From: a virus
Length of the DNA: 64,000 nt
Virus record (IMG/VR): IMGVR_UViG_3300037461_001289
Strand: one strand, 5' to 3'
Within the stretch, counting starts at the first letter, position 1. Each line of letters starts with the position of its first letter. The notes under the pieces were generated by a model, which saw nothing but the letters and a program-made list of their open reading frames with translations, made no database searches and was not told where the DNA came from. Below, one piece after another: positions 11,128 to 44,082 of this stretch. A program made the translations under genes and the position numbers.

Positions 11128-11769
11128 ATGATCGAGCTTGCCGCCCCTGACCTCGCCTGGATGGCGCGGGTCCATCGCCCGGACGAGGGCGTTCACAGCC
11201 CCACGCAGCTGCTTGAGACCCGCAACGAGCAAGGCCACGTCTTCATCCCCGAGCCCCACGGCCTGTGCGTCCGCGGCGACGTCGCCTGCGTCCACCGGGG
11301 CCTGCTGCCCGGCGTGCCGGCCGCGCCCGATGCCGCCTTGGCCACGTGGGCGGTGCAGACGTTCTTTGAGACCGCGGGGCTCCAGCCGGTGCGGCTGCTG
11401 ACGCTCGACGGCCTGCAACGGTGGGTCCGCGATGCGCCGGCGCCGTTGGTGTCGATCTGCACGACGTGCGGCGGCGACGGCATCGATCCGAACGGCAAGC
11501 CCGACGACGAGGGCCGGCGCGAGGCGTGCCCGACGTGCCACGGTGAGCCGCGCCACGTCGACGAGTCCGGCGCCTACGTCGAGGTCGGGCCGATCAAGGT
11601 CGTGCTCAGCGCGCTGCGGCCGTTCCTGAAGCACCTCGGTGGCGCGAACGTCGCGTTGGCGACCGCGCCCCGGGTCGGCGTGCCGGGGGCGTGGGACCTG
11701 CACGTGCGGGACGCTGATGTCGCAGCGGGGAAAGACGGGGCGTGGCGGGTGACGCTGCTGGGGTTCTAG
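11128..11769 (+). CDS. Protein with DnaJ-type zinc-finger repeats
   Basis: CTTCGGDG and CPTCHGE; SD CAGGAGG; last gene before strand switch. Confidence 0.6.
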   Translation: MIELAAPDLAWMARVHRPDEGVHSPTQLLETRNEQGHVFIPEPHGLCVRGDVACVHRGLLPGVPAAPDAALATWAVQTFFETAGLQPVRLLTLDGLQRWVRDAPAPLVSICTTCGGDGIDPNGKPDDEGRREACPTCHGEPRHVDESGAYVEVGPIKVVLSALRPFLKHLGGANVALATAPRVGVPGAWDLHVRDADVAAGKDGAWRVTLLGF

Positions 11770-12827
11770 GCGTACCAGTTGACCCAGTAGTCGGCCTGCT
11801 CGGTGCTGACGATGTCCAGTTGCAACGGACGTAGCAGGCCGCCCGAGACGAATTCAGGGATGTTCTGCGAGCCCAGATGCGGCGAAATGCCAGTTGCCGC
11901 AACCGTCATCCACCCCGGTCCCGGGGTCACTCCATTGAGGAAGACTGCGAGCGAGGTCGGCGAGTCGTTGGTGGCGGTGATCACGCCTGAGTAGCCAAAG
12001 CGCCGCGCGCCGACCGGGATCAAGAAGGTTCCGGTGCCCGCGGGGGCGATAGCTATCGGGCCGTCTTCGAGGATCGGCGTCTCATGATCCACCTCCCCCA
12101 CCGTCAGGTACGGCGTGAGGACGAGCGCCGCTAGGTTCACGCCGCCGGCGGTGAACCGCAGCCGGTACACGTTGCAGCCGACCGCGCGTGCCGTCGGGAA
12201 CGCGAACGCCTCGCCGATGGCGCCGAGCCACTGCTCGGTGACCGCCGTCGTGGCGCCGCCGTCGCGCGATTGGTCGATGAAGAGGGTGCCGGCCTGGTCT
12301 ATCGAGCCGACGAGGTTGAGCTTGTCGTACGGCCCCCAGGTCGTCCAGGCGCCGGTGTACGTCGCGGCGGCCAGCAGCGCCAGCGGCGGGACGTTGCCGT
12401 TGTCGAGGTACTCGCGGGTCCTACAGTCCGTCGGCGAAAAAAAAAGCTGAGTGCTCAGCAGGAAGGTGGCCTGCGCGCCCGCGCCGTTGACGTACCGCAC
12501 CCGGCCGAACCGCATGCGCCGGGGCACCGGGCCGCTGTCGTAGAGCACGCCCGCGAGCGCCGAGCCGGCGGCCTCGGTGGCGTGCTGTGTGATGCCGTTC
12601 ATGCTCCAATCGATGTGCACGCCGCCGACCGCCGAGGCCACATTCGAGAGCGACTGCACGCGGATCTCGTTGTACGCCGACCAATCCTCGAAGAGGCCGG
12701 TGTACGTGGCACCGCCGGCGAGGGTGACGGCCGTCGAGTTTTCCGGCGACGCCGCGACGGGGCCGGCGTACAGGATGCCGTTGACGACGGGGAACCCCTG
12801 AGTGTTGAAACCGAGCGGCAGAGCCAT
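11766..12827 (-). CDS. Putative virion protein of three tandem beta-sandwich domains
   Basis: Internal repeat GGATYTGLFEDW...HIDWSMNG / AAATYTGAWTTW...FIDQSRDG; strand-rich, Gly/Thr-rich. Confidence 0.5.
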   Translation of the reverse strand: MALPLGFNTQGFPVVNGILYAGPVAASPENSTAVTLAGGATYTGLFEDWSAYNEIRVQSLSNVASAVGGVHIDWSMNGITQHATEAAGSALAGVLYDSGPVPRRMRFGRVRYVNGAGAQATFLLSTQLFFSPTDCRTREYLDNGNVPPLALLAAATYTGAWTTWGPYDKLNLVGSIDQAGTLFIDQSRDGGATTAVTEQWLGAIGEAFAFPTARAVGCNVYRLRFTAGGVNLAALVLTPYLTVGEVDHETPILEDGPIAIAPAGTGTFLIPVGARRFGYSGVITATNDSPTSLAVFLNGVTPGPGWMTVAATGISPHLGSQNIPEFVSGGLLRPLQLDIVSTEQADYWVNWYA

Positions 12828-12835
12828 AGATCACC

Positions 12836-13768
12836 TCACTCCAAAGCGTTGTCGCGGCGGGCCGCCGCGAGGTCAAACCACGGGTGTGACTCGTATTGTA
12901 CCCGGTTTTCCCGGGCTGCGGCGGGCTCATCGGGGTCGGGGTACTTGCACTCAAAGCCGGTGTACTGGCATTCCCGGTCAAGCCGCCCGCAGACGCGCGG
13001 GTCGAAGGCGACCAGCTCGGCCGGCGTCCACGGCTCGTTCGCACGGAGCCGCTCCGCGGTCCGGCGGGCCGCCGCCAGCGCCCCGACGATGTGCAGGCAG
13101 CGCGGGTGGGGCGCGGTGCGCGCGCCGTGGTCGTGGCCGACCACTGCGACGTCCTCGTGGCGGACGAAGCGCACCCCGGCGAGCCGCAGGCGCAGCGTGA
13201 AGTCGACGTCCCCGCCGCTAGCACCGTCGAAGCGCTCGTCCCAACCGTTCAGCTCGTCGGCCACGGCGCGCGGGTAGGCGCAGATGCCGCCGATGATCTC
13301 CTCGGCCCCGAGTGGACCGAGCGGCTGCGGCCCGTAGGCCACGCTGGCGTCGGTCTGGCTCAGCACCGCGGCGGGGTACAGCCCGGCGACGGCCAGCTGC
13401 GCCGTCCGCCACAGGGCGCGCGGGCTCAGCTCGTAGCAGTCGTCGAGCCCGACGACCACGTCGCCGCGGGCGTAGACGAGGCCGGTGTTGCGGGCGGCGT
13501 TGGGGGCGAAGGCGCCTTGGCGCGTCCAGGGCGTCGCGCGCGGACGGAGGCAGCGGACGCCGCCGAGCGTGTGCCGACAGGCGTGCGCGACCTCGCGGCG
13601 CGGCAGCGGGTTGTCCCGGTCGACGATGACGACCTCGTAGTCGATGAACGGGTGGCCGGCGTCGTCGGTCTGCGCCGCCAGGCTCTCCGCGAGGAGGTCA
13701 TATTGCCCAAGCGGGCCGCGCGTCAGCGGGTAGAGCCCCCGGCTGGTGATGTAGAGCAGGGTCAACAT
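12836..13768 (-). CDS. GT2-like glycosyltransferase
   Basis: YEVVIVD, ARNTGLVYARGDVVVGLDD, GWDERFDGASGGDVDF. Confidence 0.8.
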   Translation of the reverse strand: MLTLLYITSRGLYPLTRGPLGQYDLLAESLAAQTDDAGHPFIDYEVVIVDRDNPLPRREVAHACRHTLGGVRCLRPRATPWTRQGAFAPNAARNTGLVYARGDVVVGLDDCYELSPRALWRTAQLAVAGLYPAAVLSQTDASVAYGPQPLGPLGAEEIIGGICAYPRAVADELNGWDERFDGASGGDVDFTLRLRLAGVRFVRHEDVAVVGHDHGARTAPHPRCLHIVGALAAARRTAERLRANEPWTPAELVAFDPRVCGRLDRECQYTGFECKYPDPDEPAAARENRVQYESHPWFDLAAARRDNALE

Positions 13769-14850
13769 GTTAGCCCCTTGGCCCGGCGGACCGCGTCCAC
13801 GATGGCGAGCAGCTCCAACATACGTGCGTCCCAGGTGTGGAGCTTGCCCAGCTCGGCCGCTGCGTGACGCAGCGCGGGCCACCGAGGGCTGTCTGGCGTC
13901 GCCAGGATAGCGTCGACGTGCGCCTGCAGCTCCGCCCAGGTCGTCCACAGCAGGCAGTTGACGCCGTCCACGAGTCCGAGCCCCTCGCAGTCGGGGAACC
14001 GCTCGACGAGGCACAGCGACCCCGAGCACAGCATGCGGATCAGCCGGTCGCTCGTGTAGCGCGCGATGTTGTTGTCGATGCTGATCGACAAGGCCGCGCG
14101 GGCGGAGCTGTAGACGGCGGCCTCAGCGGTCAGGTGGACATTGCCGTGCCCGCTGCCGTTCAGCCCCCAGTTTTGCCCAAACACCCCGAACCGGTCACCG
14201 TACTTGGCGGCCATGGCGGCGGCGATGGCCTTGCGCATCACGTAGCGCCCGGGGACCTCCCAGTTGTTGGCGAGGAAGACGACGTCCGGGCCGCCCGGGG
14301 TAGGGGGCAGCGGGTGGAAGAGGTGGTCGTCGGCGCCGGCCTCAAGAAACCCCGGCCGGACCACGCCGAGCTGCGCGTACTCGGCCTGATGCTGCGTCTC
14401 CGCCGTCAAGCTGGCGTCGATGACCGCGCCGAGCTGCTTGAACCAATCGCGGTGGGCCGAGCGCGGCGGCCAGTGCATGTCACCGTCCCACTGGACGATG
14501 ACGGCGTTAGGGGCGAGGACCGGGCGAATGCGCGCGACGTAGTCGGCGGTCAGCTCGCACGCGCCTTGCACTTGCATGAAGACGAGCGTGGCGTTGATGC
14601 GCCCGCCCTCACACACGATCTGATCGGTGAGCGCCCCGGGGAACGGCAGGCAGGCGACGTGGTCGATCTGCGTGTAGGCCGTGGCGATGGTGCCGAAGGC
14701 CCGCGGCAAGGAGTTGGTGATGTCGGCGCGCGGGTAGAGCGCGACGTGCAGCACGCGCTCGGTCCGGCGTGGGGTAGCGGCCAGGGGCAGACACCCCGGT
14801 GCGGGCGTCAGCAACCAAGGCCAGCTGGCGCTAGCGCGGCGCTCGATCAT
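13762..14850 (-). CDS. CgeB-like (GT-B) glycosyltransferase
   Basis: DVVFLAN...FGVFGQNW...YSSARAALSI...YTSDRLIRMLCSGSLCL. Confidence 0.75.
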   Translation of the reverse strand: MIERRASASWPWLLTPAPGCLPLAATPRRTERVLHVALYPRADITNSLPRAFGTIATAYTQIDHVACLPFPGALTDQIVCEGGRINATLVFMQVQGACELTADYVARIRPVLAPNAVIVQWDGDMHWPPRSAHRDWFKQLGAVIDASLTAETQHQAEYAQLGVVRPGFLEAGADDHLFHPLPPTPGGPDVVFLANNWEVPGRYVMRKAIAAAMAAKYGDRFGVFGQNWGLNGSGHGNVHLTAEAAVYSSARAALSISIDNNIARYTSDRLIRMLCSGSLCLVERFPDCEGLGLVDGVNCLLWTTWAELQAHVDAILATPDSPRWPALRHAAAELGKLHTWDARMLELLAIVDAVRRAKGLTC

Positions 14851-15509
14851 CGACAGTCCTCGGGCGTGATCGTCACCCACGGGCGCGGATCGGCGGGCCA
14901 GCCGTAGTAGATGACGTGGTTGATGACCGGCACCGCGTCCGGCGGGATCAGCTCGCGGCGCACGAGGAAGGCGTTGAAGTGATGCACGTGCGCCAGCACG
15001 TAGTCGTGGGCCTCACCGAGCAGGCGAAAGGCCGCCACAGTCGCACCGAAGTACGCGGTGTTGGCGAACACGAAGCCCGGGTCGTAGTGGATGGCCAGCG
15101 CCGGCTCGGCCGGGTGGGCGTTGTTGACCTCGCAGACGATGACCCGCGGCGCGTAAGTGCGCAGCAACGCCCGCAGCACGTACCAATCGAAGCCGTCGAT
15201 GTCGAGGCTGAGGAGATCGAACTCGCCCGGCGTGTTGTACTTGGCGAGGATGTCGCCGACGTTCTCCGCCGTGATCCGCGCCTGGTTGACGTCGCCGGCG
15301 TAGGCCGCGTCGAACCGCGCGCCGTGCCAACCGGCCTCAAGGAAGAGGCGGGTGTTCGACAGCGCGGTGCCATCGCCCGCGCCGATGTCGACGAGGTGAC
15401 GGTTGGTCGTGCCGATGGCGGCGAAGATCGCCTCGAGAATGCCCTCCTCACCGGTCTGGCTGTAGACGCGGCGCGCGGTGTTGCCCAGCGTGTCGACCCA
15501 AGTCGTCAT
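14847..15509 (-). CDS. FkbM-like methyltransferase
   Basis: YSQTGEEGIL, VDIGAGDG, LSLDIDGFD, VIVCEVN. Confidence 0.75.
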   Translation of the reverse strand: MTTWVDTLGNTARRVYSQTGEEGILEAIFAAIGTTNRHLVDIGAGDGTALSNTRLFLEAGWHGARFDAAYAGDVNQARITAENVGDILAKYNTPGEFDLLSLDIDGFDWYVLRALLRTYAPRVIVCEVNNAHPAEPALAIHYDPGFVFANTAYFGATVAAFRLLGEAHDYVLAHVHHFNAFLVRRELIPPDAVPVINHVIYYGWPADPRPWVTITPEDCR

Positions 15510-16177
15510 AGGACCCCCAGCTCCTTCAAGACCTCGCAGACCAGCGTCGTGTCCCCGATGTGTACCCCGCCGTCGCTCAGCTCGCAGATCAGCATGCCCT
15601 CGTCGTTGGCGTACTTGGCGTGCACGTCCACGAACAGCAGCCCGCGCGCGACGCACCCGCGCGCGAGGTAGTGGTTGATCAGGCGCGTGTAGTAGGCCCG
15701 CTCGGCGTCACCGCCGGCCGGCGGTACGTTGAGCTGCGACGGCGGCCACTGGATCCCCCAGGAGCGCTCATACGGCGCCGGTGGCGGGACGCTGAGGACA
15801 CCGGTCCGCGCGCCGCGGGTGTCGAGCGCCGCCACGCGGTTGACGTAGTTGGCCACCATGACGGGGACATAGACCTCGGCCGTGGTGCGGTCGTGGTCGA
15901 GCTGCGGCTTGAGGAAGCAGCGCACGTCGCCCTCGCCGCACGAGACGATGACCACGTCCGTCGGCCCGAGCGCGGTGTCACGGACCGCGTCTTGCAGCAG
16001 CGTGTCGTCGACGTGCTCGGTGTCCGCCTCGCTCAGCGCGTAGATCAGCTCGCGGTCCTTGCGCGTGCGCCCCGAGGCGATCCGGCGCATCGTGATCGGA
16101 CCGAGCGCGTGGGGCACCGTCCACGGCACGCCGCGGAACGTGTAGACCGCGTGACTGTCGCCGTAGGTGTGGATCAC
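15506..16177 (-). CDS. SGNH/GDSL-like hydrolase or acyltransferase
   Basis: N-terminal YGDSH block I, GEGD block III, terminal DGGVH. Confidence 0.6.
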   Translation of the reverse strand: MIHTYGDSHAVYTFRGVPWTVPHALGPITMRRIASGRTRKDRELIYALSEADTEHVDDTLLQDAVRDTALGPTDVVIVSCGEGDVRCFLKPQLDHDRTTAEVYVPVMVANYVNRVAALDTRGARTGVLSVPPPAPYERSWGIQWPPSQLNVPPAGGDAERAYYTRLINHYLARGCVARGLLFVDVHAKYANDEGMLICELSDGGVHIGDTTLVCEVLKELGVL

Positions 16178-16770
16178 GGTCGGACCGTCCAGCGCAGGCA
16201 CAGGCTCGGGTAGGCGTGCGGGCTCGGCTCGTCGACGCCGGGCGCGAAGCCGTGCGCCTGGACGAGCGTATCGAGCGAGTGCCGGTTGTAGCTCATCAGG
16301 TGGAACCCCTCGGGCGTGTTGCGCGGGCCGAGCAGGTGGCGCAGCAGCACGAGGTCTTGCGTCGCGATGAACTGCCGCAGCGTCGTGTCGTGGTCCGGCA
16401 CCGACAGGCGCAGCACGCCGCTCGGTTGCAGCACGCGCCGAACCTCGTCGAGCGCGCGATGCGCGTCGGCGAGTGCCAGATGCTCGAAAGACTGCCGCGC
16501 GAGCAGCTCGTCGACCGTCCCGTCGCGCGCCGGGAGGCACGTCCACGCACCGTAGGCGTCGCACACGTACTCCGCCGCCTCGGCGCCGGCCGCGAAGCTG
16601 GCCAGCGTGTCGTGGTCGCGGTGGCGACCGTAGTAGTCATCGCTCGTCGTCGCGTAGCGGGCCACGAGGTCAGGGCGCTCGGCGGCGAGCCACACGCGCG
16701 GGCGCGGCAGATCCACGTTGACCCACCCGTCGGTCAAGTACACCGTGCCGCTGGCCAGGTGGAGCTTCAT
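16174..16770 (-). CDS. Class I SAM methyltransferase (type 11-like)
   Basis: KLHLASG...WVNVD, QSFEHL, VLQPSGVLRLSVPD. Confidence 0.75.
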   Translation of the reverse strand: MKLHLASGTVYLTDGWVNVDLPRPRVWLAAERPDLVARYATTSDDYYGRHRDHDTLASFAAGAEAAEYVCDAYGAWTCLPARDGTVDELLARQSFEHLALADAHRALDEVRRVLQPSGVLRLSVPDHDTTLRQFIATQDLVLLRHLLGPRNTPEGFHLMSYNRHSLDTLVQAHGFAPGVDEPSPHAYPSLCLRWTVRP

Positions 16771-17480
16771 GGCAGCGCGACCACCTTGGTGCTGGCGGTG
16801 ATGGCCCCGTAGACGGCGGCCGAGTAGCGGCTGGCCCCGGCCATGGTCGGCTCGACCGCGGTATGTGTCAGCCGCCCCAGCTCCAACGCGCAGGCGAGCC
16901 AATCGGCCTCGGACCACCCGCTGCGCGCGTGCTGCGCGTGGTAGCACAGGATCTGCGTCGGGCAGTAGAGTGGCACGCCGGCCTTGAGCGCGACGTAGGG
17001 CACCCAGTAGTCCCACCACGGCTTGCCAAGGCACAGGAAGGTGCTGTCGTACAGCGGCACGAGCCGCGGGTGGACGGCGAACGCACTGATGCCGCACGGC
17101 TCGATGACCTGGACGCCGGGGCTCGTGCAGTTGTACTGCAGCAGGTACGGCATCCCGGCTGCCGCGAGCGCCGCGAGACCTTCGATCTGCCCCGGCGTGG
17201 CCTGCACGCGCAGGTCCGCGTTGATGACGAGCGCAGTGCCGTGCCGCGCGATCCACTCGAAGAAGGCGTTGAGCCGCACGTACGGGCGGCCGAATGGCAC
17301 CTCGGCCGTCGCCTCAGTCGCCACGACCTCGACGCCCGGATAGGCATCGGTGAGCGCCGCGACCTCGCTCGGGTGGTTGAGCGACACCGGCACAAGGCCC
17401 GCCGCGCGCCAGGTGTCGAGGTAGGCGCGCTGCGCGGGGACGCGGGCCGGGTCCGGCGCGATGGAGGTGAGCGCGATCAC
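16767..17480 (-). CDS. Putative GT-A-like glycosyltransferase
   Basis: LVINAD (DxD-like) and LGKPWWDYW; sits within glycan cluster. Confidence 0.45.
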   Translation of the reverse strand: MIALTSIAPDPARVPAQRAYLDTWRAAGLVPVSLNHPSEVAALTDAYPGVEVVATEATAEVPFGRPYVRLNAFFEWIARHGTALVINADLRVQATPGQIEGLAALAAAGMPYLLQYNCTSPGVQVIEPCGISAFAVHPRLVPLYDSTFLCLGKPWWDYWVPYVALKAGVPLYCPTQILCYHAQHARSGWSEADWLACALELGRLTHTAVEPTMAGASRYSAAVYGAITASTKVVALP

Positions 17481-18013
17481 TTCACGCCCTCGAGGTACAG
17501 CGTCACGTGCCACGAGGACGCGGCGCAGTCGTTGAGCGCCGCGACCGCCGGATAGGCTGCCAGCGCCCACGGCCGTACTTGCGCGAAGCCCGCCGCCCGC
17601 AGGAGCGCGGTGAGCGTGGCGGCGGTGAAGCACTGCTTGTGCGCCATCCACGGGCTGTCGGTGGACTTGGTGTCGCCGTACAGGTAGGCGTTCCAATCGT
17701 GCGCGCTGTAGCCCTTGGAGTAGGCTCGGTGGTAGATGCCGTCGAGGTCGATGGTGGCGAGCGTAAGCACGCCGCCCGGCCGCAGGGCGCGGTGGAGGTG
17801 CGCGAACACGCCGGGCAGGAGGTCCGGGGCGATGTGCTCGATCACGTGGCTGCTGTAGACCCACGCCAGCGCGTTGTCGGGCAACGACCCGAGGTCGCGC
17901 GTCACGTCGAGCACCGCGTCGACGCCCGGCCCAGCGACCGCGTCGACGTTGACGCAGCCGGCCAGGCGCTTGCCGCCGCAACCGAGGTGCAGGCTGGCGC
18001 CGTCCCAGCTCAT
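17477..18013 (-). CDS. Class I SAM methyltransferase (type 11-like)
   Basis: LHLGCGG...VNVD, YSSHVIEH, LRPGGVL. Confidence 0.8.
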   Translation of the reverse strand: MSWDGASLHLGCGGKRLAGCVNVDAVAGPGVDAVLDVTRDLGSLPDNALAWVYSSHVIEHIAPDLLPGVFAHLHRALRPGGVLTLATIDLDGIYHRAYSKGYSAHDWNAYLYGDTKSTDSPWMAHKQCFTAATLTALLRAAGFAQVRPWALAAYPAVAALNDCAASSWHVTLYLEGVK

Positions 18014-18759
18014 CGCAGCACGCCCCCGCAGCGCTCGGCGTCCGCGCGGTGGTACTCGCCGCTGCCGAGCGGAAAGCGCCGGCCAAACAGCTCGCTGGTC
18101 GTGTACTCGCGGCGGTTCTTTTCTTTCAGTGCGTCCTGGCATTCGTGATCGTGTACCTGCAAGTCCGCAGCGCAGTGGATCGTCCAACCGAGCCGCCAGA
18201 TCGAGATCCCGGCCTCGGTGTCGGCCGCGTAGGTCGCATGCGTATTACCCCAGAACGCGGTGCCAGCCGGGTCGCCGAGGAAGCGCGCCACCGCCTGGAG
18301 CGTCGCGCGGCGCACGAGCCCCTGGTTGAGGTACGGCAGCCCGGCCCACGTCTCGAAGCCGAAGCTGCGCGTGCCAGCGGCGTCGCGGTGGTGATCGCTG
18401 GCCCACGACACCGCGCCGATGTCCGGGTTGCCGTCCATGAGCAAGACCGCCGTCGCCAGCGCGTGCGGGGTGACGAACTCGAGGTCGTCGTTGTGCGTGC
18501 CGATATAGCGCGCGTCGTCGGCTACCGCCCGCGCGAACCCGCGGTTGAAGTTGGGCACCGCACCGCTGAGATCGCCCGGGAGGCAGATGCAGTCCGGCTG
18601 CGCGGCGAGGTACGCCTGCGTGCCGTCGGTGCTGCCGCCGTCCACGGCGATGATCTCGTACGTCAGCGGGCCGGCGGCCAGCCGGATCGCTTCTACGCAC
18701 TTGGTGAGCAGCGGCAGGCGGTTGTAGGTGCCGAACACGACGGCGGCGTCAAGCGTCAT
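18010..18759 (-). CDS. GT2 glycosyltransferase
   Basis: GTYNR, EIIAVDGGSTDGT, NRG, HNDD. Confidence 0.85.
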   Translation of the reverse strand: MTLDAAVVFGTYNRLPLLTKCVEAIRLAAGPLTYEIIAVDGGSTDGTQAYLAAQPDCICLPGDLSGAVPNFNRGFARAVADDARYIGTHNDDLEFVTPHALATAVLLMDGNPDIGAVSWASDHHRDAAGTRSFGFETWAGLPYLNQGLVRRATLQAVARFLGDPAGTAFWGNTHATYAADTEAGISIWRLGWTIHCAADLQVHDHECQDALKEKNRREYTTSELFGRRFPLGSGEYHRADAERCGGVLR

Positions 18760-20623: not shown

Positions 20624-21142
20624 TCACGCGATGCGCTCCAGTGGCAGCGAGAACAGCCGCCGCCACTTCTCCCATGCCGCCGTGACCGCGCCCGTTCCGG
20701 GGTACAGGTCGCACATCTCGTCGGTCGGGCAGGCGCCGACCATCTCGAAGGCCCACATGCAGACCTTCTCGGGCTTCGCCCCGCACAGCCCCCGCTTGAG
20801 GGTGATCGGGCACTCGACCCAATCGCGCATCACCACGCGCCCCGCCACAACGGGCTTGCGGGCCGCCTTCACCACGACGGGCTCCCAGGCGTAGGCCACC
20901 GACACATTGCGCTTGAAGGCGGCGAATGACTTGACCCACGCCATCAAGCGTGCCTCGGGCGGGATTAGGGGAAGCACCACGCGCAGGCCAGGGACGGACG
21001 TGTGCAGCACCCACCCGGCGTAGTCGCGCTCCAGGCGGGCGACCAGCTCGGCGTGGTCTACCTCTCCGGCGTAGTCGGGATGCTCCGCGTACAGGTGCGC
21101 GCAGCCGGGATAGGGTGGGTCGGCGTAGCCGATGCGCGTCAT
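20624..21142 (-). CDS. Minimal DPPY-type N6A/N4C DNA methyltransferase (beta order)
   Basis: YADPPY at N-terminus, DLYPGTG SAM motif near C-terminus. Confidence 0.7.
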   Translation of the reverse strand: MTRIGYADPPYPGCAHLYAEHPDYAGEVDHAELVARLERDYAGWVLHTSVPGLRVVLPLIPPEARLMAWVKSFAAFKRNVSVAYAWEPVVVKAARKPVVAGRVVMRDWVECPITLKRGLCGAKPEKVCMWAFEMVGACPTDEMCDLYPGTGAVTAAWEKWRRLFSLPLERIA

Positions 21143-24455: not shown

Positions 24456-24465
24456 CCAAGTCCTC

Positions 24466-24777: not shown

Positions 24778-24845
24778 GCGCGCACCTTGCGCCGGCGCCA
24801 GACGCCGGTCGTCAGCTGCACGTACTCGTATCCGGGTCGGTTCAT
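24774..24845 (-). CDS. 23-aa translationally coupled mini-ORF
   Basis: MNRPGYEYVQLTTGVWRRRKVRA; ATGA overlap upstream, GTGA overlap downstream. Confidence 0.45.
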   Translation of the reverse strand: MNRPGYEYVQLTTGVWRRRKVRA

Positions 24846-29319: not shown

Positions 29320-29327
29320 GGGTCTCC

Positions 29328-33987: not shown

Positions 33988-34514
33988 GCGATCCCGTTGG
34001 CCTGGCGCAGCGCCGCGATGTTGAACGCCACGTCACGCCGGTACGCGGAGTCGCCGTTGTACAGCAGGATCGCCTTCGTCCAATCGCCGTCGACCTTCTT
34101 GAGCAGCTCGACGAGCAGCTTGGCCGCCATCCGCGCCTGCGCGCGCACGTCAAACAGCTTCGTCAGCGGCACGCCGGCCTTGAACGCCTTGCCGCTGCCG
34201 ACGAGGTGGTACGGATTGAGTTGCATAAACCCAAACGGCCGCCACTGCTCGGCGGTGAACATCTCGCCCCACGTCATGCTCGATCCGGGGATCCGCTTGT
34301 CCTTGTTGCGCGCGTAGCTGTTCGCGTACGTCTTGTTGTTGCCCCCGTGCTTCTTGCCGGTTGACAACACGGTGAACTGCGTCTCACGCCGCCCGATGCC
34401 GTAGAGCACCTCGGGCGGGATGCCGTACTCCTTCGACGCCTCGTCAATCGCCTTGCGGATGTCCGCGGGCGGCTCTTTCCAATCGGCGGGGAACACAACG
34501 ATGGCGGGGAACAT
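33984..34514 (-). CDS. SLT-family lytic transglycosylase
   Basis: SKEYGIPPEVLYGIGRRET, FGFMQL, AAKLL, WTKAILLYNG. Confidence 0.8.
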   Translation of the reverse strand: MFPAIVVFPADWKEPPADIRKAIDEASKEYGIPPEVLYGIGRRETQFTVLSTGKKHGGNNKTYANSYARNKDKRIPGSSMTWGEMFTAEQWRPFGFMQLNPYHLVGSGKAFKAGVPLTKLFDVRAQARMAAKLLVELLKKVDGDWTKAILLYNGDSAYRRDVAFNIAALRQANGIA

Positions 34515-35123: not shown

Positions 35124-36338
35124 CTACTCCTTCTTGCTCTTCTTCTTGGGTGCCGGCGCCGGCGGCTCGGGCGTAGGCTCGGGCGTCGGCTCCGGCGCCA
35201 CGACCGGCTCGGCCGGCTTCGCCGTCGCCGCCTGCGCCTCGGCGTCGGCCTTGAGCGCCGCCGCCACCGCCGCCCACTGCTGCGCCTGCGCCTCGGCCAC
35301 CGCTGCCTGCTCGGCCGGCGTCGATGCCACAGCGGCCGGCGCGGACTCCGCGGGCCTCGTCGTCGAAGCGGCAGCAGCAGCGGCCGGCGCGCTCGCCGGC
35401 GCCCCACCGCCCTTGAGCTTCTCCATCATCTCGATCTGACCTTGCCACCACTCCATGAAGTTCGCCCGCTCGGCGTCGGTCAGCTTCGACAGGATCTCCA
35501 TAAACCGGCCTTCGTCCTTAGCCAGCGACTCGAAGGTCATCATCAGCTGCTTGGCGCCCGGCGAGGTCGCGTCGCGCACGTCGAGCCCGCCCCACTTGCG
35601 TGCCACCGCCAAGCCGACCGTCTTGACCGTGTCGACCAGCTCGCGCTTCGTCTCGCGCTCGATCTTCAGCGACTCGCGCTGCTGCTCGCGGTCCAGCTCG
35701 GCGATCTTCGCCTTGCGCACGACCTCCTCGTTCTCCCGCCGCTCCTTGCGGTCCAGCAACGACTGCTCGTGCATGTCGCGGATCTGCTCCCGCATGCACT
35801 GCATCATCGTCACACTACCCGTCATGAGGTCGCAGAAGTTGTCCTCGAAGCGGTCGAGCTTGCCCATGACGAGCTGGAGCACGCCGGCCTCGTTGGCCGG
35901 CAGCGAGTCGATGTTCCGCTCCGCCGTCTGCCCGACCTTGATCCAGAAGAAGCACCCCGACTCGCTCTCGCTCGGGTCGTCCTCGTAGTAGGCGTGCGCG
36001 CCAAACTGCTGCGTCGACCCGCCCAGCCCGGCGGCGTAGTTCTCCGCCTTCGCCCACAGCGCGTGCGCCATCTCCGGCGCCGCCTCGGCGTCGCGCTGGT
36101 CCGGCGCCAACGCCTTGAGCTGGATCGTCCCGAGCTTGTCCCCGAGCCGCCGCCCCGGCGTGACGTGCCGCAGGTAGACGACGAGCGGACGGGCGTCGGT
36201 GTGCAACGCGAACGCCTCGCGCAACCACTCGATCAGCCGCTCACCATCCCGCCCGGTCAACGCGACTCCGTTGCCAGCACGGACCCGCCCGAGGTCCGTG
36301 ATCGTCGCCGCCCGCTCCGTTGTCAGTAGCTTGCCCAT
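35124..36338 (-). CDS. Coiled-coil protein with Ala/Pro-rich tail
   Basis: SD GGAGA before ATG 36338; long charged helix in the middle. Confidence 0.65.
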   Translation of the reverse strand: MGKLLTTERAATITDLGRVRAGNGVALTGRDGERLIEWLREAFALHTDARPLVVYLRHVTPGRRLGDKLGTIQLKALAPDQRDAEAAPEMAHALWAKAENYAAGLGGSTQQFGAHAYYEDDPSESESGCFFWIKVGQTAERNIDSLPANEAGVLQLVMGKLDRFEDNFCDLMTGSVTMMQCMREQIRDMHEQSLLDRKERRENEEVVRKAKIAELDREQQRESLKIERETKRELVDTVKTVGLAVARKWGGLDVRDATSPGAKQLMMTFESLAKDEGRFMEILSKLTDAERANFMEWWQGQIEMMEKLKGGGAPASAPAAAAAASTTRPAESAPAAVASTPAEQAAVAEAQAQQWAAVAAALKADAEAQAATAKPAEPVVAPEPTPEPTPEPPAPAPKKKSKKE

Positions 36339-37647: not shown

Positions 37648-37657
37648 CGATCAACTC

Positions 37658-38560
37658 CTAGAGGGCAAGCTCGAAGATCAAATTGTAGTCGGCCGACCCA
37701 GCCGCCATGCGGTTGACCACGCGGATCGTCTGCGCGTCGGACCCGATGGGCCAATCCGGCGTCGGGTACGCCACCGCCTGGTACAGCGCTTCTGCCGGCC
37801 CGTAAGCGCTGTCGCGCATCTCAACGTCGAGCTGCGTATTGTTGGCCACCGCCGTCGCGCGGAAGCTCTTGGCAAACATCGGGATGAACCACGCATCATC
37901 GCCGAAGGCGGCCAGCGCATGCCGCGCCAACGTCCGCTGCGGCTGCCGCCCGTGAGCGACGGCGCCGGTCGCCAACGACGCGGCGACGCGATACTGCGGC
38001 GGCGGTATCGAGATCGCGTGCCCCCCGGGGATGGTACGGTAGACCACGTGCAACTGCAGACGCGTGATCGCCAGCGAAAACTGCACCCCGCGCATGTAGT
38101 CGATCTCGGTCAGCATCGCAACGCCGCCGATACCGAGGTCCAGAATCGCCACGACCTCAGTCGGCGAATTGAGCGCTTCGCCGGTAGGCGGCGGTCCGGT
38201 AAGATCCCCGAGCACGATGGTCACGACATGCGGCTCCTCATCCTTCGTCGCGACGTCGATAAGTGTGACCGCCGCCGCGCGCTCCACCGGCACGTCAAGC
38301 GCCGTCCGCGGCCAAAACTGATTACCCCCGGGGCCGACCACCTGCGCGGGCGCCTCCTGCAGCGTCAGCAACGCATTGCCTTGGAGCTTCGCCCCCTCCT
38401 TGAAGATGCTCGAACCGCCCTCGTCGTGGTAGTCGCCGTATTGGTCCGTGTACCCGCTCATGTCGCCCGCTCCGCCGTCAGCGCCCGGGGCGCCGTAGTA
38501 GTAGTTAACCTCGTTGACGCACCCGAACCCGCACAGACACACTGCCAGTAACCAGCGCAT
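37658..38560 (-). CDS. Two-beta-sandwich (double jelly-roll-like) protein with possible lipoprotein signal
   Basis: SD GGAGG, MRWLLAVCLCGFGC; then two strand-rich halves ending YNLIFELAL; fold is inferred. Confidence 0.5.
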   Translation of the reverse strand: MRWLLAVCLCGFGCVNEVNYYYGAPGADGGAGDMSGYTDQYGDYHDEGGSSIFKEGAKLQGNALLTLQEAPAQVVGPGGNQFWPRTALDVPVERAAAVTLIDVATKDEEPHVVTIVLGDLTGPPPTGEALNSPTEVVAILDLGIGGVAMLTEIDYMRGVQFSLAITRLQLHVVYRTIPGGHAISIPPPQYRVAASLATGAVAHGRQPQRTLARHALAAFGDDAWFIPMFAKSFRATAVANNTQLDVEMRDSAYGPAEALYQAVAYPTPDWPIGSDAQTIRVVNRMAAGSADYNLIFELAL

Positions 38561-38618: not shown

Positions 38619-39863
38619 TCATTGCGCTCCGACCGTGCCCTCACCCGGGAACGGCCCGTCCTCGCCGCCCTCCGGCATCCCCTCGTCCTCATCCTCGCTC
38701 TGCGACTGCGCGATCTCCTCAGGAAACTCGCCGATGGCGTACTGCGGAGCGCCCTCGGGGAAGTCACTGTCGGTCAGCCCCTCGTCTTCGTAGTAGGTGC
38801 CGTCGTCGTCATCGAACCCTTCGCCCGCGCCGTTGTCCTCCTCGGGCGCGAGGAAGTCGTCCGGCCCGAGGTCCCCGCCGTACCCACCGCCGCCACCACC
38901 GTCGCCGGGCATCATCGGCATCATCCCGTAGGGGTTGCTCTGCAGCCACGGGTTGTAAGGCATCTGTGGTAACGGCTGCGGCTGCGGCGTCAGCACCGCG
39001 GTCAGCGGCGTCCGCGGCACGAGCGTGGTCACGATGGGCCGCGCTGCCGCCAACGACGGCCGCGCCATCGTCATCGAACTCGGCGCGGCGACGGTCGTCG
39101 GCTTGACCGTCGTCGTCAGCGGCGCCACCACACCACTCGGCGCGGGGCGCGTCGGCAACGTCGGCGCCGCAGTCGAGACGCGCGGCCCCATGACCCCACC
39201 CGGCGCCGCCGCGGTCCCGCGCCGCGAACCGGACTTGGGCGACGGTAGCGCCGGACGCCGCGGTGCCGGCCGGCGTACAACAACGCGCCGAGCCGGCGAT
39301 CTCGCCGGCAGCGCCCCGCCCTCGACCGCGACGCGCGAGGCGACCACCGACGGCGGCGGTAGGTTGCGCGCCACGAGCTTCGCGACGCTGTTGATCATCC
39401 CGAGCGCCTTGGCCGCCGCCGGATCACCCGCCTCCGCACACTCGCGGATGCGTTCGAGCTGCTGCACCGAGACGTCGTCGCCGGCCTGCGCCGCCTGGAC
39501 CAAGTGGTAGGCCGCGTCCGCCGTCGCCGTCGTCCACTCACCGAACCACGGCGCGATCACGATGCCGTCGCGCTTGACCTGCTCAGCAAGCTGCCGCTTG
39601 ACCTCCTCGCCTGCGATGTGCTGGCACAGCTTGACGAAGCGCGCCGGATCCGACGGATTCCGCCACGCCCCGACGTCGACCCCGGCCGGCGCGGTCGCGA
39701 GCAGCCGCTTGCGCACCGCCTGCGCCGTCTGGATCACCCACGGCCGGTCGACGCGGACCTCGACGGTCCCGAGCTGGCCGTCGGGCGTACGCAGCTCGAC
39801 GGTCGCGTAGTAGTAGTCGTCGTCTTGCGACCACTCGACGTGCTGCGCGAGATCGAGGCTCAT
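38619..39863 (-). CDS. Putative virion protein with helical AGD module, Pro/Thr linker and acidic tail
   Basis: LVQAAQAGDD...AEAGDP; ends EGTVGAQ. Confidence 0.6.
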   Translation of the reverse strand: MSLDLAQHVEWSQDDDYYYATVELRTPDGQLGTVEVRVDRPWVIQTAQAVRKRLLATAPAGVDVGAWRNPSDPARFVKLCQHIAGEEVKRQLAEQVKRDGIVIAPWFGEWTTATADAAYHLVQAAQAGDDVSVQQLERIRECAEAGDPAAAKALGMINSVAKLVARNLPPPSVVASRVAVEGGALPARSPARRVVVRRPAPRRPALPSPKSGSRRGTAAAPGGVMGPRVSTAAPTLPTRPAPSGVVAPLTTTVKPTTVAAPSSMTMARPSLAAARPIVTTLVPRTPLTAVLTPQPQPLPQMPYNPWLQSNPYGMMPMMPGDGGGGGGYGGDLGPDDFLAPEEDNGAGEGFDDDDGTYYEDEGLTDSDFPEGAPQYAIGEFPEEIAQSQSEDEDEGMPEGGEDGPFPGEGTVGAQ

Positions 39864-40574
39864 CTAGGTCCCCGCGTCGGCGAACTCGACGTCCCCAGGC
39901 ACCCCCGACGGGTACGCCGCCGCCGCGTCGTCCTGCTCCGCCTCGACCTGCTCCGCCGCCATCGCCTCGCTGGTCTCGGTCGCCGGCTCCGACGCATTGA
40001 CCGCGTCCGGCAGCTTCAGCTTTTCGATCAACGCCTCGTAGCCCTCGGCCTGCGCCTCGAGCTGGCTCCGCATGTCGTCGGCGATGGTACGATTCTCGAG
40101 CATCTTCTCGACCGCCGCCAGCTGGTCCTCGACCTGCGCCAGCTCGACGTCGTGCGCCGTCTTGAGCGCGGCCACGCGCTGCCGCGCCTGCGACATGAGC
40201 TTGCCCTTCTGCGCCCGCTCAATCGACGTGCGCTTGAGCGACGCGATCTGCGCCTGCTGCTTCTTGATCGTCGCCGCCTGCGCGCTCGACGCCCCACGCC
40301 CACCCGGCAGCAACGGCGACGCCCGCCGCCGCGACACCACGAACTGCGACGGCTTCGGCAGCCCCTTGAGGATGAGCTTAGCGACGGCATCGAAGTTACG
40401 CTTGATCCCCACGATCTGCTCATTGCCCGCCTTCCCCGCGAGCGTAATATTGAGCAGCTCCTTCTTCGCCTTCGCGTCGCCGCTACCGGCGCGCACGAGG
40501 TAGTCATACGCCATGTCCCAGACCGGCATCGACCACGGCTGCCGGAGCCACGTTGCGCTGATGGTGACTTTCAT
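39864..40574 (-). CDS. Coiled-coil putative virion protein
   Basis: AGSGD...KAGN module then heptads. Confidence 0.6.
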   Translation of the reverse strand: MKVTISATWLRQPWSMPVWDMAYDYLVRAGSGDAKAKKELLNITLAGKAGNEQIVGIKRNFDAVAKLILKGLPKPSQFVVSRRRASPLLPGGRGASSAQAATIKKQQAQIASLKRTSIERAQKGKLMSQARQRVAALKTAHDVELAQVEDQLAAVEKMLENRTIADDMRSQLEAQAEGYEALIEKLKLPDAVNASEPATETSEAMAAEQVEAEQDDAAAAYPSGVPGDVEFADAGT

Positions 40575-40607
40575 GTGCCTGTCCCTTCCCTTGCCGGCGC
40601 CGCCGGC

Positions 40608-41213
40608 TCAGCCGATGTAGCGGTCCTCAAGCTCGATGTCCTCGGACATGCCCGGCCCGCTGCGAAAGTAGCCGTCGCCCCCGCCACCGTAGTTGAACGG
40701 CCCGAAGCCGAACGGCAGCAGCGGGACGCCGCCCGGGAAGCCCCCCGGGAACTGCCCGACCTCGTATTCGTACTCGACCTCGCCCGGCAGCGGCTCGCCG
40801 ACGGCCGACGGCCACGATGGCGGGTTGTACATCGGCGCGAACCCCAGCTCGGCGTCGGCCTGCATCTCCTCGAAGACGAACGGGTCGACGCCGTAGTTCC
40901 AGATCGACTGATAGCCCCACGGCAACATCGGCACCGCGCCAGGGAACCCGCCGTTGAGCCCGACCACCGCCGTGCGCCGCAGCTGCAGCAGCACGCTCGG
41001 CGGCGGCTGCCCCGCAGCGGCGAGACGGATGATCGCCGAGAAGTAGCGCCACGCCTCGACGGCCAACTTGTGCCCGCGCCGCGCCTGCGCCTCGACCTCG
41101 TCGAGCTGGCCCCGCGCACCGGTGTCGCCGTCGAGCGCGGCGAGCGCCAGCGCGTGCGCGAGGTCCGCCGTTGCGGTCGTCCAGGGAAACTTGAACCACG
41201 GGACCGTGACCAT
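40608..41213 (-). CDS. Putative virion protein, Gly/Pro/aromatic-rich tail
   Basis: ALDGD...RRGH module; GQFPGGFPGG. Confidence 0.6.
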   Translation of the reverse strand: MVTVPWFKFPWTTATADLAHALALAALDGDTGARGQLDEVEAQARRGHKLAVEAWRYFSAIIRLAAAGQPPPSVLLQLRRTAVVGLNGGFPGAVPMLPWGYQSIWNYGVDPFVFEEMQADAELGFAPMYNPPSWPSAVGEPLPGEVEYEYEVGQFPGGFPGGVPLLPFGFGPFNYGGGGDGYFRSGPGMSEDIELEDRYIG

Positions 41214-41222
41214 CGCCGCCTC

Positions 41223-42014
41223 CTAGAAGATGCCGTTCAGCCGCGCATACGCGGCCGTCGTCTCGGGGAACTTCTTGCGCTGCGCCGCGTCCGCGGCCCA
41301 CCCGCGTAGGCCCCCGAGCCCCGCGCGCCGACACACACCGAGCAGCCCTGACAACGTCGCCGGCTGGCCCTCGATCTCCTGTCCGATCAGGTCCTCGTGA
41401 TGCCGCACGAGCACGCGCCCGTGCAACTTCGCCAGCGCCGTCAGCGCTTCGTACTGCTCCGCCGGGTCTGCCAGGAACGCCGCCTCGCTCCGCCCGTCGG
41501 CCCACGTCCCCGTCCAACCCAAACGCCCGTCGCGCAGCGCCTTGCGCGCGTCCAGCATCCACCCAGCGTCAGCCAGCTCGCGCGCGGTCAGCGCGTAGCA
41601 GCCGAGCCGCCCATCCGGCGCCACGGCCGACGGGCGCGCAACCCGCGACCGCTGCACGTAGGTCGTCCAGCTGGCGGTGTCGACGTCGCGCAGCGGCGAC
41701 GGATACGTGATCTGCAACGTCACGCCCGCGGCGTCAGCGAACGCCTCGGCCGCCGCGAGCACCGCGGCCTCGTCGCGCAGCGCCACCGCCAGCGAAGCGT
41801 GCCCGTGCCGCGCAGCCTTGACCGCCGCATCCCGCAACTCCGCCGCCGTCGCCTGGTGCTGACGAACCGCGAGCACCGCGCGCAGCACGTCGACCGGCAC
41901 CGGCTGCGCGCCGACCCGCACCGTCGTCGGCGCCCGCAGCCCCAGCCAGGTCGCGAAGGCCGTCGCTGCGCCCACGGCGACCGCGATCCCCACGATGACG
42001 ACCGGCGGCATCAC
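41223..42014 (-). CDS. Membrane-anchored lysozyme-fold-like protein
   Basis: N-terminal TM; LGCYAL, FLADPAEQ, TLSGLLGVCRRAGLGG pattern. Confidence 0.45.
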   Translation of the reverse strand: MMPPVVIVGIAVAVGAATAFATWLGLRAPTTVRVGAQPVPVDVLRAVLAVRQHQATAAELRDAAVKAARHGHASLAVALRDEAAVLAAAEAFADAAGVTLQITYPSPLRDVDTASWTTYVQRSRVARPSAVAPDGRLGCYALTARELADAGWMLDARKALRDGRLGWTGTWADGRSEAAFLADPAEQYEALTALAKLHGRVLVRHHEDLIGQEIEGQPATLSGLLGVCRRAGLGGLRGWAADAAQRKKFPETTAAYARLNGIF

Positions 42015-42721
42015 TCACCGCTCCCGCGCGTCCAGGTCCACGAACCGTTGCTGAGGCGCGTCCACCGGCTGCGCGCCGGATCGTAGCCCTTGTTGCGGAT
42101 CAGGCGCGCCACGCCGATCAGATACGCCGCCCGTGCGTCGCCGCGCTCGGCGCGCTGCCGTAGCGCTTCGAGCTGCGACAACGCCAGCTCGTTCCCGAGC
42201 AGCGCCGCGCCGACCGCGTTCGTCATGCCATTGACGACGACCCACGGCACCCCGGGCACCGGGATGTAGCCGTCGGGCTCGTCTTGGTTCATACCGAGCA
42301 CGCGCGACGGGTCCTCAATCGTCCCGTCGCTGCGCAGCGTCAGCACGTGGTAGAGCAAGAGACGACCGACATCTGGATCGTCTACCTCGGCGAACTTCTT
42401 GGTGCACCGCGCGCCCGGGTCGACGCCGCTGACGCGGTACTCAGCGGCGAGCCACGCCGCGAGCGACTTACAGTCGGCGACGCCTTCGCTCAGCGCTTCA
42501 GCTACATCGAGCCATTCATCCACGAGTCCCGATTGCGAGCCGCGACCTGAATGGTAGTAGCGCACGCCGCTGTCGTAGAGGCGCGGCGTGTCGGGGTGCT
42601 CACGCAGGTAGTCGACATCTTGCTGCGTCAACGCCTCGAGCCAACGGTCGAGCGCGCGCTCGCTGGCCTCGCGGGAGTACGACTCGGTGAAGATGCGAGT
42701 GCGGAGCTGGGCGGGCCTCAC
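42011..42721 (-). CDS. Transglutaminase-like (papain-fold) protein
   Basis: GVADCKSLAAW (Cys), LYHVL (His), IEDPS (Asp). Confidence 0.7.
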   Translation of the reverse strand: MRPAQLRTRIFTESYSREASERALDRWLEALTQQDVDYLREHPDTPRLYDSGVRYYHSGRGSQSGLVDEWLDVAEALSEGVADCKSLAAWLAAEYRVSGVDPGARCTKKFAEVDDPDVGRLLLYHVLTLRSDGTIEDPSRVLGMNQDEPDGYIPVPGVPWVVVNGMTNAVGAALLGNELALSQLEALRQRAERGDARAAYLIGVARLIRNKGYDPARSRWTRLSNGSWTWTRGSGE

Positions 42722-42730
42722 GCGCGGCCT

Positions 42731-42793
42731 CCAGAAAAAGCTTCGGCCCGACGATCACGGACAGGGGGGTGAACCGTAATCGTCGGGCCGAAG
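42731..42793 (-). terminator. Intrinsic terminator after the putative major capsid gene
   Basis: 15-bp perfect stem CTTCGGCCCGACGAT/ATCGTCGGGCCGAAG followed on the - strand by CTTTTT. Confidence 0.75.
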
Positions 42794-42852
42794 GTCATGC
42801 AGTGTCCTCGGCCGCTATCAAGTAGCGGCGTGGGCGAAGCGTTGCGTCGGTC

Positions 42853-43392
42853 TTAGGACCGGCGATAGCTGCGGACCTTGAGGACGAGCGACAGCACGCG
42901 CGGGGTGGTGGCCGCAGCGGCGTTCGTGAAGCCGACCTGGATGATCTGGCCGCGCTGCACGGTCGTGAAGCGGACGAAGCGGTTCTGCACGCCAACGGCG
43001 AAGATCGCCGCCGGGATCGCCGCCGCGCCGAGGAACATGTTGGTGTCCCCGACGAAGAAGCTGGTGATGTTGAACGTGCCGGCCACGGCCTCAATCGTCA
43101 TGAGGTCGATGACCTGGTACGGGGTGTTGCAAGTCGCCTGCGCAGTGCCAGCGACGCCGCCGGCATACGTGGCCGCGTTGGTGGGAAGGTTCACGAAGTA
43201 GGTGAACATCCCCTTGGCCTTCGCGGCGCCAGCGGGGACGTAACCACGGGCGCGCCGACGCACGGCCCCGAGGGCCGCGTCAACCGCATCCGCGCCAGCG
43301 GCGTAGGTCAACGCCTCGCCACCGGCCTCGTACTCAGCGCCAAACTCCACGTCCGCGCCCACATCAACGTCAACGCCGAATTCCACTGCCAT
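42853..43392 (-). CDS. Candidate major capsid protein (single jelly-roll-like) with acidic propeptide
   Basis: Second gene of late operon, followed by terminator; ~35-aa acidic leader then ~140-aa all-beta region; fold inferred. Confidence 0.45.
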   Translation of the reverse strand: MAVEFGVDVDVGADVEFGAEYEAGGEALTYAAGADAVDAALGAVRRRARGYVPAGAAKAKGMFTYFVNLPTNAATYAGGVAGTAQATCNTPYQVIDLMTIEAVAGTFNITSFFVGDTNMFLGAAAIPAAIFAVGVQNRFVRFTTVQRGQIIQVGFTNAAAATTPRVLSLVLKVRSYRRS

Positions 43393-43506
43393 GTGCCTGT
43401 TCCTTTTTTTCGTCAACCCCGCACCAGCTCATCTGATGACTCGCCAGCTTGGGGCGTCCGGTTGAGTCTTGCGCTGGGCCGACCCCAGCGACGCACCATG
43501 CGTCGA

Positions 43507-44082
43507 CTAGGCGCCCGACGCCTCGCGCACCATCTGCTCCAGCTGCGCCGCCGTGAGGGGCTGCGGGGCCGCGCCGATGGTGACGTACTGCGACGGCAGG
43601 TTCTGGTCGGTGAAGCCGACCCGGTAGCCCGCCAGCGGCGCCTCGACGAGCGCGATGTTCTTGCTCGCCGCGTACGCCTTGATCTCCACGACCTTGCTCG
43701 GAGGGAGGAGCGCCATCTGCGTCGGCTGCCCCGCCTTCGCGCGCATCGTCATGCCCAGCTGGCGGCCGAGATCGCCACCGTAGCTGCCGAGGAGGCCAGC
43801 CGCCATGTTGCCCGCATGGGTGCCGTAGTCGTCGAGGTAGCCCGACGCCGCGGCGCCCGCACCGACGCCGCCGGCCAGCAGCATGAGGGGCACGCCACCG
43901 ATCTGCACGTGGCCCGACCCGTCCTTGGCCAGCCGCCCCTCGAGGAGCCCGAGGGCCAGCGGAGCCGCGAACGCCTCGCCGGCCTTGGTCAGCTCGGCGA
44001 TGGTCGTCTTGTGCTCCTCGATGAACTTCTTCGCCCGATTGGCGAGCTGCCGAGCCTGCTCCAGCGTCATGTCGTGTGCCAT
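43507..44082 (-). CDS. First late gene, membrane-associated
   Basis: SD AGGAG; hydrophobic LMLLAGGVGAGAAA segment. Confidence 0.6.
   Translation of the reverse strand: MAHDMTLEQARQLANRAKKFIEEHKTTIAELTKAGEAFAAPLALGLLEGRLAKDGSGHVQIGGVPLMLLAGGVGAGAAASGYLDDYGTHAGNMAAGLLGSYGGDLGRQLGMTMRAKAGQPTQMALLPPSKVVEIKAYAASKNIALVEAPLAGYRVGFTDQNLPSQYVTIGAAPQPLTAAQLEQMVREASGA

Follow-up and report, generated by a model that had tools for sequence, protein, structure and literature searches.

The stretch of DNA analysed here (the window) comprises 64,000 nucleotides of the virus record IMGVR_UViG_3300037461_001289 and is all but 765 bp of a complete, closed genome of 64,765 bp. Our reading, to which we assign a probability of roughly 0.55, is that this genome belongs to a bacterial double-stranded DNA (dsDNA) virus outside the tailed phages, which would be tailless, probably membrane-containing and devoid of a packaging motor; from the genes we infer the virion, its membrane, its symmetry and its assembly route. 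Two results carry this reading. No recognisable packaging, capsid or tail gene was found in the closed genome, and a protein encoded near the start of the minus-strand late block, here termed B, was modelled as a single jelly-roll whose gene is directly followed by its own terminator and by the gene of a transglutaminase-like cysteine enzyme. More tentatively, we propose that B, the adjacent transglutaminase-like protease and a double beta-sandwich protein, termed A, define a widespread, unrecognised high-rank lineage with genomes of 30 to ~79 kb and hosts of 44-70% guanine plus cytosine (GC), whose members would be tailless, membrane-containing, free of a nucleoside triphosphatase (NTPase) in encapsidation and outside both Duplodnaviria and canonical Varidnaviria.

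With few known exceptions, bacterial dsDNA viruses larger than 20 kb are tailed phages with an HK97-fold capsid into which the DNA is pumped. The known tailless membrane phages have small genomes of 10-20 kb and rely on an FtsK-type motor. If our reading is true, the size range of tailless bacterial viruses would be extended several-fold. Motor-free encapsidation, so far archaeal, would then occur in bacteria as well, and the genome would stand for a virus group not yet described. On the more tentative proposal of a high-rank lineage, this group would be the first counterpart of the motor-less archaeal portogloboviruses in bacteria.

Genome closure and gene layout

Public contig L001 reproduces the last 10,759 bp of the window with 0 mismatches, continues through 765 bp that the window lacks, and then enters window positions 1-529, again with 0 mismatches. 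The junction from position 64000 to position 1 is therefore L001:10759-11525, and the closed unit measures 64,765 bp. One of the window's own proteins is also recorded on a contig of 65,559 bp. This length exceeds the 64,765 bp of the closed unit by a 794-bp end repeat, as is usually seen with circular or terminally redundant genomes. The gene across the junction encodes one S-adenosylmethionine (SAM) methyltransferase of 291 residues; window positions 2-574 hold its 3' part and the 5' part lies beyond position 64000, and both halves had independently matched the same PHROG family. Within the missing 765 bp there is nothing but the last part of a nucleotidyltransferase-like gene and the beginning of this methyltransferase gene. 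Because the genome closes, the possibility that hallmark genes are located elsewhere on the contig is removed.

The window has a GC content of 68%. According to a gene call based on codon usage, a plus-strand arm (1-11769) is followed by ~43 minus-strand genes running from 44082 down to 11766 and by a second plus-strand arm from 44247 to the window end. At its top the minus block diverges from the plus-strand replication arm (44082 against the first plus gene at 44247), and at its bottom it converges with the plus gene 11128-11769, with a 4-nt overlap. An earlier reading of the window from its sequence alone (the sequence-only reading) had described this block as a complete 32-kb late operon. 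Its bounds and the common orientation of its genes are as claimed, but the strong intrinsic terminator after gene B means that the 32 kb are not one simple transcription unit, and the distal third (11766 to ~21142) is not structural: about one third of the block is devoted to glycosylation and methylation.

Search for packaging, capsid and tail genes

Each called gene was compared with Pfam or PHROGs; for the late genes at 20624-44082 both were used. No called gene of the closed genome matched a terminase, portal, HK97 capsid, tail, tape-measure, tube, sheath or FtsK-type family. The sequence-only reading had found none of terminase, portal, HK97 capsid, tape measure, tube or sheath in the late module, and no packaging ATPase there; the profile scans agree on both counts, and the lack of a packaging ATPase now extends to the whole closed genome. 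Matches in the minus block were confined to a lytic transglycosylase domain (SLT), a C39 peptidase, a weak DUF5661, a weak tail-spike match (E 0.008) and a cluster of glycosyltransferases, methyltransferases and a GDSL enzyme. The tail-spike match, which falls on the 1039-residue protein, and SLT were the only tail-related signals in the late genes.

Walker A motifs gave a consistent picture. None was found on the late strand, and canonical motifs in real frames occurred only in a thymidylate-kinase-like gene (4244) and in SNF2 (56448), both on the plus strand; a looser pattern yielded mostly wrong-frame noise. The P-loop proteins of the closed genome are only the kinase, SNF2 and the primase-helicase. 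Two candidates for hidden hallmark genes were rejected. The gene at 59404-60516 is not a capsid gene, as it is DUF932-like, an early-gene neighbour in tailed phages that have capsid genes of their own. The gene at 4214-5134 is not a packaging ATPase, as it matches a thymidylate-kinase PHROG (E 9e-12) and adjoins a thymidylate synthase.

A tailed phage could show the same inventory if its genes for terminase, portal, capsid and tail had diverged past profile recognition. The replication genes are typical of tailed phages, the Atlas automatically labels B-like clusters 'Uroviricota', jelly-roll decoration proteins exist in tailed phages, and the structure models cover only two late proteins. Nevertheless, we regard this explanation as very improbable. 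The large terminase is a P-loop ATPase, and Walker A is missing from the late strand here and from the whole genome of the 30-kb relative G001 (described below). None of three related genomes gave a Pfam or PHROGs hallmark match, while a control phage scored. The few late proteins longer than 400 residues are low-complexity, coiled-coil, protease or strongly basic, and none is portal- or terminase-like. Moreover, B, A and the cysteine enzyme had no match in 50,697 GenBank phage records, and tblastn with six late proteins and two from the related contig L011 gave none among GenBank phages.

Protein B, its terminator and the adjacent cysteine enzyme

Gene B (42853-43392, minus strand) encodes a protein of 179 residues with a disordered acidic N-terminus, a helix at 34-47 and a predicted eight-strand single jelly-roll at 60-179. 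AlphaFold2, supplied with the homologue alignment, returned a confident eight-strand sandwich for residues 60-179 (predicted local distance difference test 85-92), and the best solved-structure match of the model was a sphaerolipovirus penton protein. Judged by this model, B is a candidate major shell or penton protein. Its homologues number 42, and 32 of them are 60-94% identical. Profile and single-sequence searches of the PDB with B, A and the 404-residue and 1039-residue late proteins gave nothing significant, and no annotated family stood out when the models of B and A were searched against AlphaFold DB and Atlas.

Protein A (37658-38560, minus strand, 300 residues) consists of two tandem beta-sandwich (GOLD/jelly-roll-like) domains at ~59-199 and 205-300, and its model is a confident double beta-sandwich. 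Compared with PM2 P2, it gave a Foldseek E-value of 4e-4 at a template-modelling score of 0.21-0.23. Structure models were thus obtained for 2 of ~30 late proteins (B and A); both are all-beta and neither is HK97. The sequence-only reading had named three all-beta proteins (42853, 37658 and 11766), of which 42853 and 37658 were modelled as such, and the model of the former is the jelly-roll sought among the candidates. Neither of the two outcomes that this reading had named as refuting it was thus seen in the profile scans of the closed genome or in the two models. No hidden paralogue of B or A was found in the window or in a 67.9-kb relative.

Directly after gene B lies an intrinsic terminator (42731-42793, minus strand) with a 20-bp stem followed by a U-run. 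It was missed by a consensus scan and was found by direct folding: the RNA of 42715-42860 on the minus strand folds with -70 kcal/mol (z = -4.9), and 0 of 200 shuffles fold as well. With this terminator, B and the membrane protein encoded before it would be far more abundant than the downstream products. The latter protein is the product of the first late gene (43507-44082, minus strand), has 191 residues, is Gly/Ala-rich with a hydrophobic segment at 61-79, and is 74% identical in the 68-kb relative; a gene of 188-196 residues precedes B in every relative examined.

B could alternatively be a spike, matrix or nucleocapsid protein of a virus that lacks tail and motor but is not icosahedral with an internal membrane, being instead enveloped, pleomorphic, spindle-shaped or filamentous. 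The lack of a motor fits such a virus, yet the archaeal virus SPV1 combines the same lack with an icosahedral shell. The layout of B, with an N-terminal helix and a jelly-roll, and its best matches are those of icosahedral vertex or shell proteins, and the pleomorphic and enveloped viruses known from prokaryotes are much smaller and simpler. We therefore consider this alternative unlikely.

The gene directly following B (42011-42721, minus strand) encodes the transglutaminase-like (papain-fold) cysteine enzyme. Cys84, His125 and Asp137 are invariant in 26 of 26 diverse homologues, and PF01841 (transglutaminase core) is present in some of its relatives. Against the PDB it gave a weak match, with the catalytic Cys motif aligned, to 4u65_E ('putative cystine protease'), which we take to be LapG. 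As it always neighbours B, it may be a maturation protease or a cross-linker. The enzyme family is large, with at least 1,449 cluster representatives, many of them only ~140 residues long, and a member is also present in an otherwise ordinary phage contig (L014/L015; IMG/VR G002) that has 37% GC and a terminase. The family thus extends beyond this lineage and is not diagnostic alone.

The N-termini of B (43290-43392) and of a 298-residue protein (31440-31487) both have an acidic leader with a V-E-F-G(G) motif, and B also carries a conserved Y-A-A-G stretch. Cleavage by C39 peptidases follows Gly-Gly, and that by LapG-type enzymes takes place at di-alanine motifs. If these specificities apply here, both motifs may be maturation sites.

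Relatives and distribution

The set of B, cysteine enzyme and A is found again in relatives that range from 30 to 68 kb in size and from 44 to 70% in GC. The 67.9-kb relative (70% GC) was walked end to end and is syntenic with the window, including the core of B, cysteine enzyme and A; no terminase, portal or capsid family is on record for it. Its two ends do not overlap; both lie within the range of the window and add nothing beyond the window ends. A 79-kb contig has B and the cysteine enzyme in an operon layout that matches over the 20 kb seen, and a 16.8-kb contig has the same operon start. Contig L011 (15.3 kb) carries B-like, cysteine-enzyme-like, two SLT, A-like and spike genes in the same core order at 44% GC, which indicates that the group spans very different hosts. 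The spike of L011 is a protein of 710 residues with a Phage_tail_beta domain.

The smallest relative, IMG/VR G001 (64% GC), is 29,914 bp long with an exact 97-bp terminal repeat and has B-like, cysteine-enzyme-like and A-like genes. It gave no match to the large terminase families PF03354 and PF03237, to HK97 capsid (PF05065), to portal (PF04860) or to FtsK (PF01580), and no real frame contained a Walker A motif. In contrast, a control phage record that shares only the cysteine enzyme did score for terminase, and the hallmark screen therefore works.

A scan of 185,579 reference species with the B profile produced no match and no integrated copy, so that a host assignment was not possible. Exact-string searches with the window ends gave nothing in IMG/VR or in JGI metagenome contigs. 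IMG/VR scans with single proteins and with the B profile returned no relative, and G001 is the only lineage member found in that database. As the structural core matches no GenBank phage and IMG/VR holds one member, current catalogues appear to miss the lineage largely. With three marker families at hand (B, A and the adjacent cysteine enzyme), the group can now be searched for.

Membrane proteins, proposed virion and assembly

In a crude hydropathy scan, transmembrane-like segments were found in 11 of the first 29 late proteins and in 4 of 45 plus-strand proteins; two of the 11 probably reflect buried beta strands, and the scan overlooked two or three genuine cases. About 10 late proteins have a single hydrophobic anchor. 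The many small membrane proteins noticed in the sequence-only reading are thus real as predictions and enriched relative to the plus strand, and it is on this enrichment that the proposed virion membrane is based.

Many membrane proteins, no capsid hallmark and no motor would also be expected of a mobile element without a virion, plasmid or integrative, that has phage-like replication genes and an operon for envelope, adhesion or vesicle proteins, and that spreads in vesicles or otherwise. The glycosylation cluster, an integrase and a lipoprotein fit this explanation, and plasmid-carrying membrane vesicles occur in haloarchaea. However, neither a conjugation ATPase nor a relaxase was found in the Pfam/PHROGs scans of the genes. 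Two spike-like proteins have a common anchor, the transglycosylases include a match to a virion-protein PHROG, and the jelly-roll protein is highly conserved, has a viral best match and is followed by its own terminator. In addition, no integrated copy is known from the reference species, and G001 has terminal repeats as virus genomes do. We judge a non-virion element to be rather improbable.

A closed genome, a phage-like replication arm, spike-like proteins, wall-degrading enzymes, proteases, a highly conserved jelly-roll protein with its own terminator, and membrane and protamine-like proteins together best fit a tailless membrane-containing virus. The lack of a packaging NTPase here and in the 30-kb relative counts against membership in the tailed phages, and it also departs from the ATPase of PRD1- and sphaerolipovirus-type viruses. 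In such a virion, B would be the abundant shell or vertex protein, and the membrane would carry many small membrane proteins. Virion proteins may be matured by the cysteine proteases, spikes would bind the host, transglycosylases would open the cell wall at entry, and the virion surface may be glycosylated by virus-encoded enzymes. As there is no packaging motor, we propose that basic proteins condense the DNA and that membrane and shell assemble around it, as in SPV1, rather than that DNA is pumped into a preformed capsid.

Several points weigh against this proposal. Besides the 'Uroviricota' label of B-like clusters, B and A are not detectably related, and their origin as diverged paralogues was ruled out (hhalign probability 0.2%). 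No capsid protein aligning across both domains of A was found. By BLAST, G001 has no recognisable homologue of SLT or of the small basic protein. The DNA has been seen only in bulk wetland metagenomes; no RNA set with it is listed, and no listed run is labelled as a virus-particle fraction. Finally, an HK97 or a novel capsid fold may be present among the ~28 late proteins outside the structure models.

Comparison with known viruses

The closest analogues appear to be the sphaerolipoviruses and the portogloboviruses, and the nearest functional precedent is probably SPV1. SPV1 (Portogloboviridae) has a circular dsDNA genome, a jelly-roll shell and penton, an inner membrane, a core of basic proteins and no packaging ATPase, and its glycosyl- and methyltransferases are the only enzymes with an assigned function (PMC8459092). 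The likeness lies only at the level of predicted fold and architecture, with no sequence similarity. In contrast to the present genome of 65 kb with PolA, a primase-helicase and nucleotide metabolism, SPV1 is a 20-kb virus of an archaeal hyperthermophile without replication genes.

Helvetiavirae, the vertical single jelly-roll viruses, comprise Sphaerolipoviridae (HHIV-2, HCIV-1, SH1) and Matsushitaviridae (P23-77). The best solved match of B, a sphaerolipovirus penton, points in their direction. Unlike them, the present genome has no A32/FtsK-type ATPase, no adjacent pair of small and large capsid genes and no sequence similarity to them. [quoted passage not shown] Its gene features are bacterial, and the host is probably neither a halophile nor a thermophile.

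From the PRD1/PM2-type viruses (Tectiviridae, Corticoviridae, Autolykiviridae) it differs in that no double jelly-roll was recognised, no packaging ATPase was found and the genome is four to six times larger. Of the likeness to PRD1, PM2 and sphaerolipoviruses that had been suggested from the sequence, the predicted jelly-roll of B stands, while the missing FtsK/A32-type ATPase and the lack of a recognised double jelly-roll reduce it to an analogy. The broader suggestion of a large tailless membrane virus is favoured by the closed genome without hallmarks and by the jelly-roll of B, its virion and membrane being predictions from gene content. With Caudoviricetes the genome shares the replication arm (family A polymerase, PrimPol-VapE, SNF2, exonuclease, ThyX, DUF932, HNH and integrase), but by profile scans their whole morphogenesis module is missing from the closed genome.

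Other genes of the late strand

The remaining late genes, all on the minus strand, are described in the order of the block. Next to the cysteine enzyme, a gene at 41223-42014 encodes an Ala-rich protein of 263 residues with an N-terminal membrane anchor, which is 66% identical in the relative and has no family match. Three consecutive paralogues of 201, 236 and 414 residues follow (38619-41213). They have in common a domain of ~75 residues (pairwise local alignment scores 137 and 83), their tails are Gly/Pro-rich, coiled-coil or acidic, and they are 47-66% identical in the relative without a family match; they are candidate scaffold or internal proteins. The 404-residue protein (35124-36338) has a long charged helical middle and an Ala/Pro/Glu-rich tail and is 64% identical in the relative. 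It is a candidate scaffold or assembly protein, with no match in Pfam, PHROGs, GenBank phages or the PDB.

A pair of putative lytic transglycosylases lies at 33175-34514. The 176-residue SLT protein (33984-34514) matches PF01464 (E 7e-9) and, with E 6e-6, phrog_342, which is annotated as 'internal virion protein with endolysin domain'. Its 270-residue neighbour (33175-33987) is membrane-anchored by a transmembrane segment, and in L011 both genes of the corresponding pair match SLT. A basic protein of 71 residues (29934-30149), 44% Lys+Arg, is by its composition a candidate DNA-condensing core protein; the counterpart in the relative has 70 residues and 43% Lys+Arg and is 73% identical over 41 residues. 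The gene at 27691-29379 encodes a protein of 524-562 residues in which a cysteine peptidase domain of the C39 type was recognised (PF03412, E 3e-9, passing the family cut-off), and its homologue in the relative carries the same domain.

Two putative receptor-binding proteins of 278 and 1039 residues are encoded at 21336-25678, with a small signal/transmembrane protein between them. Their first ~45 residues are alike, with an N-terminal alignment score of 83 over 45 residues. The gene of the 1039-residue spike-like protein (21336-24455) has ~62% GC, clearly below its surroundings, and resembles a host-range cassette open to exchange. The operon of the 68-kb relative ends with other large genes (458, 671 and 504 residues), and the 1039-residue gene was outside the gene set compared.

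The glycosylation/methylation cluster (11766-18759) contains, according to Pfam, two GT2 and one GT1-like glycosyltransferases and three SAM methyltransferases, one of them of the FkbM type, as well as a GDSL/SGNH enzyme and two unknowns. The Pfam-recognised glycan enzymes span 18759 down to 12836, and the last gene of the cluster encodes a beta-rich protein of 353 residues. Except for this last gene, the cluster is syntenic and 50-87% identical in the relative. Upstream of it, the gene at 20624-21142 encodes 172 residues with an N-terminal D-P-P-Y motif typical of N6-adenine/N4-cytosine methyltransferases, and it had no Pfam or PHROGs match.

Replication, nucleotide and modification genes

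The plus-strand arms flanking the late block hold a phage-type set of replication and DNA-modification genes. They encode PrimPol-VapE, a family A polymerase, SNF2, a PD-(D/E)XK exonuclease, a weakly matching VRR-NUC and a tyrosine recombinase, and further ThyX, a ThyA-like enzyme, a dCMP deaminase, a kinase, C5 and Dam-type methylases, an HNH endonuclease and a MerR-like regulator. The tailed-phage-type replication arm named earlier (PolA, primase-VirE, SNF2, VRR-NUC) is accordingly present, its VRR-NUC member being weak.

Genes for nucleotide metabolism and DNA modification are dense at 4214-7203 and 55182-55895 (kinase-like, ThyA-like, Dam-type methylase, dCMP deaminase and ThyX), and a C5 methylase is located at 1344-3215; this set suggests modified DNA. 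The DUF932-like gene at 59404-60516, in the early arm, matches phrog_1362 (E 7e-41) and has an extreme codon bias, with a third-position GC (GC3) of 0.96. Just before it, the gene at 58365-59372 encodes 335 residues with an N-terminus matching phrog_14658, and both genes are kept in the relative.

The HNH endonuclease gene (47605-48066) directly follows the primase-helicase gene. In the 79-kb relative, an HNH gene is inserted directly beside gene B, which indicates that homing endonucleases move within the lineage.

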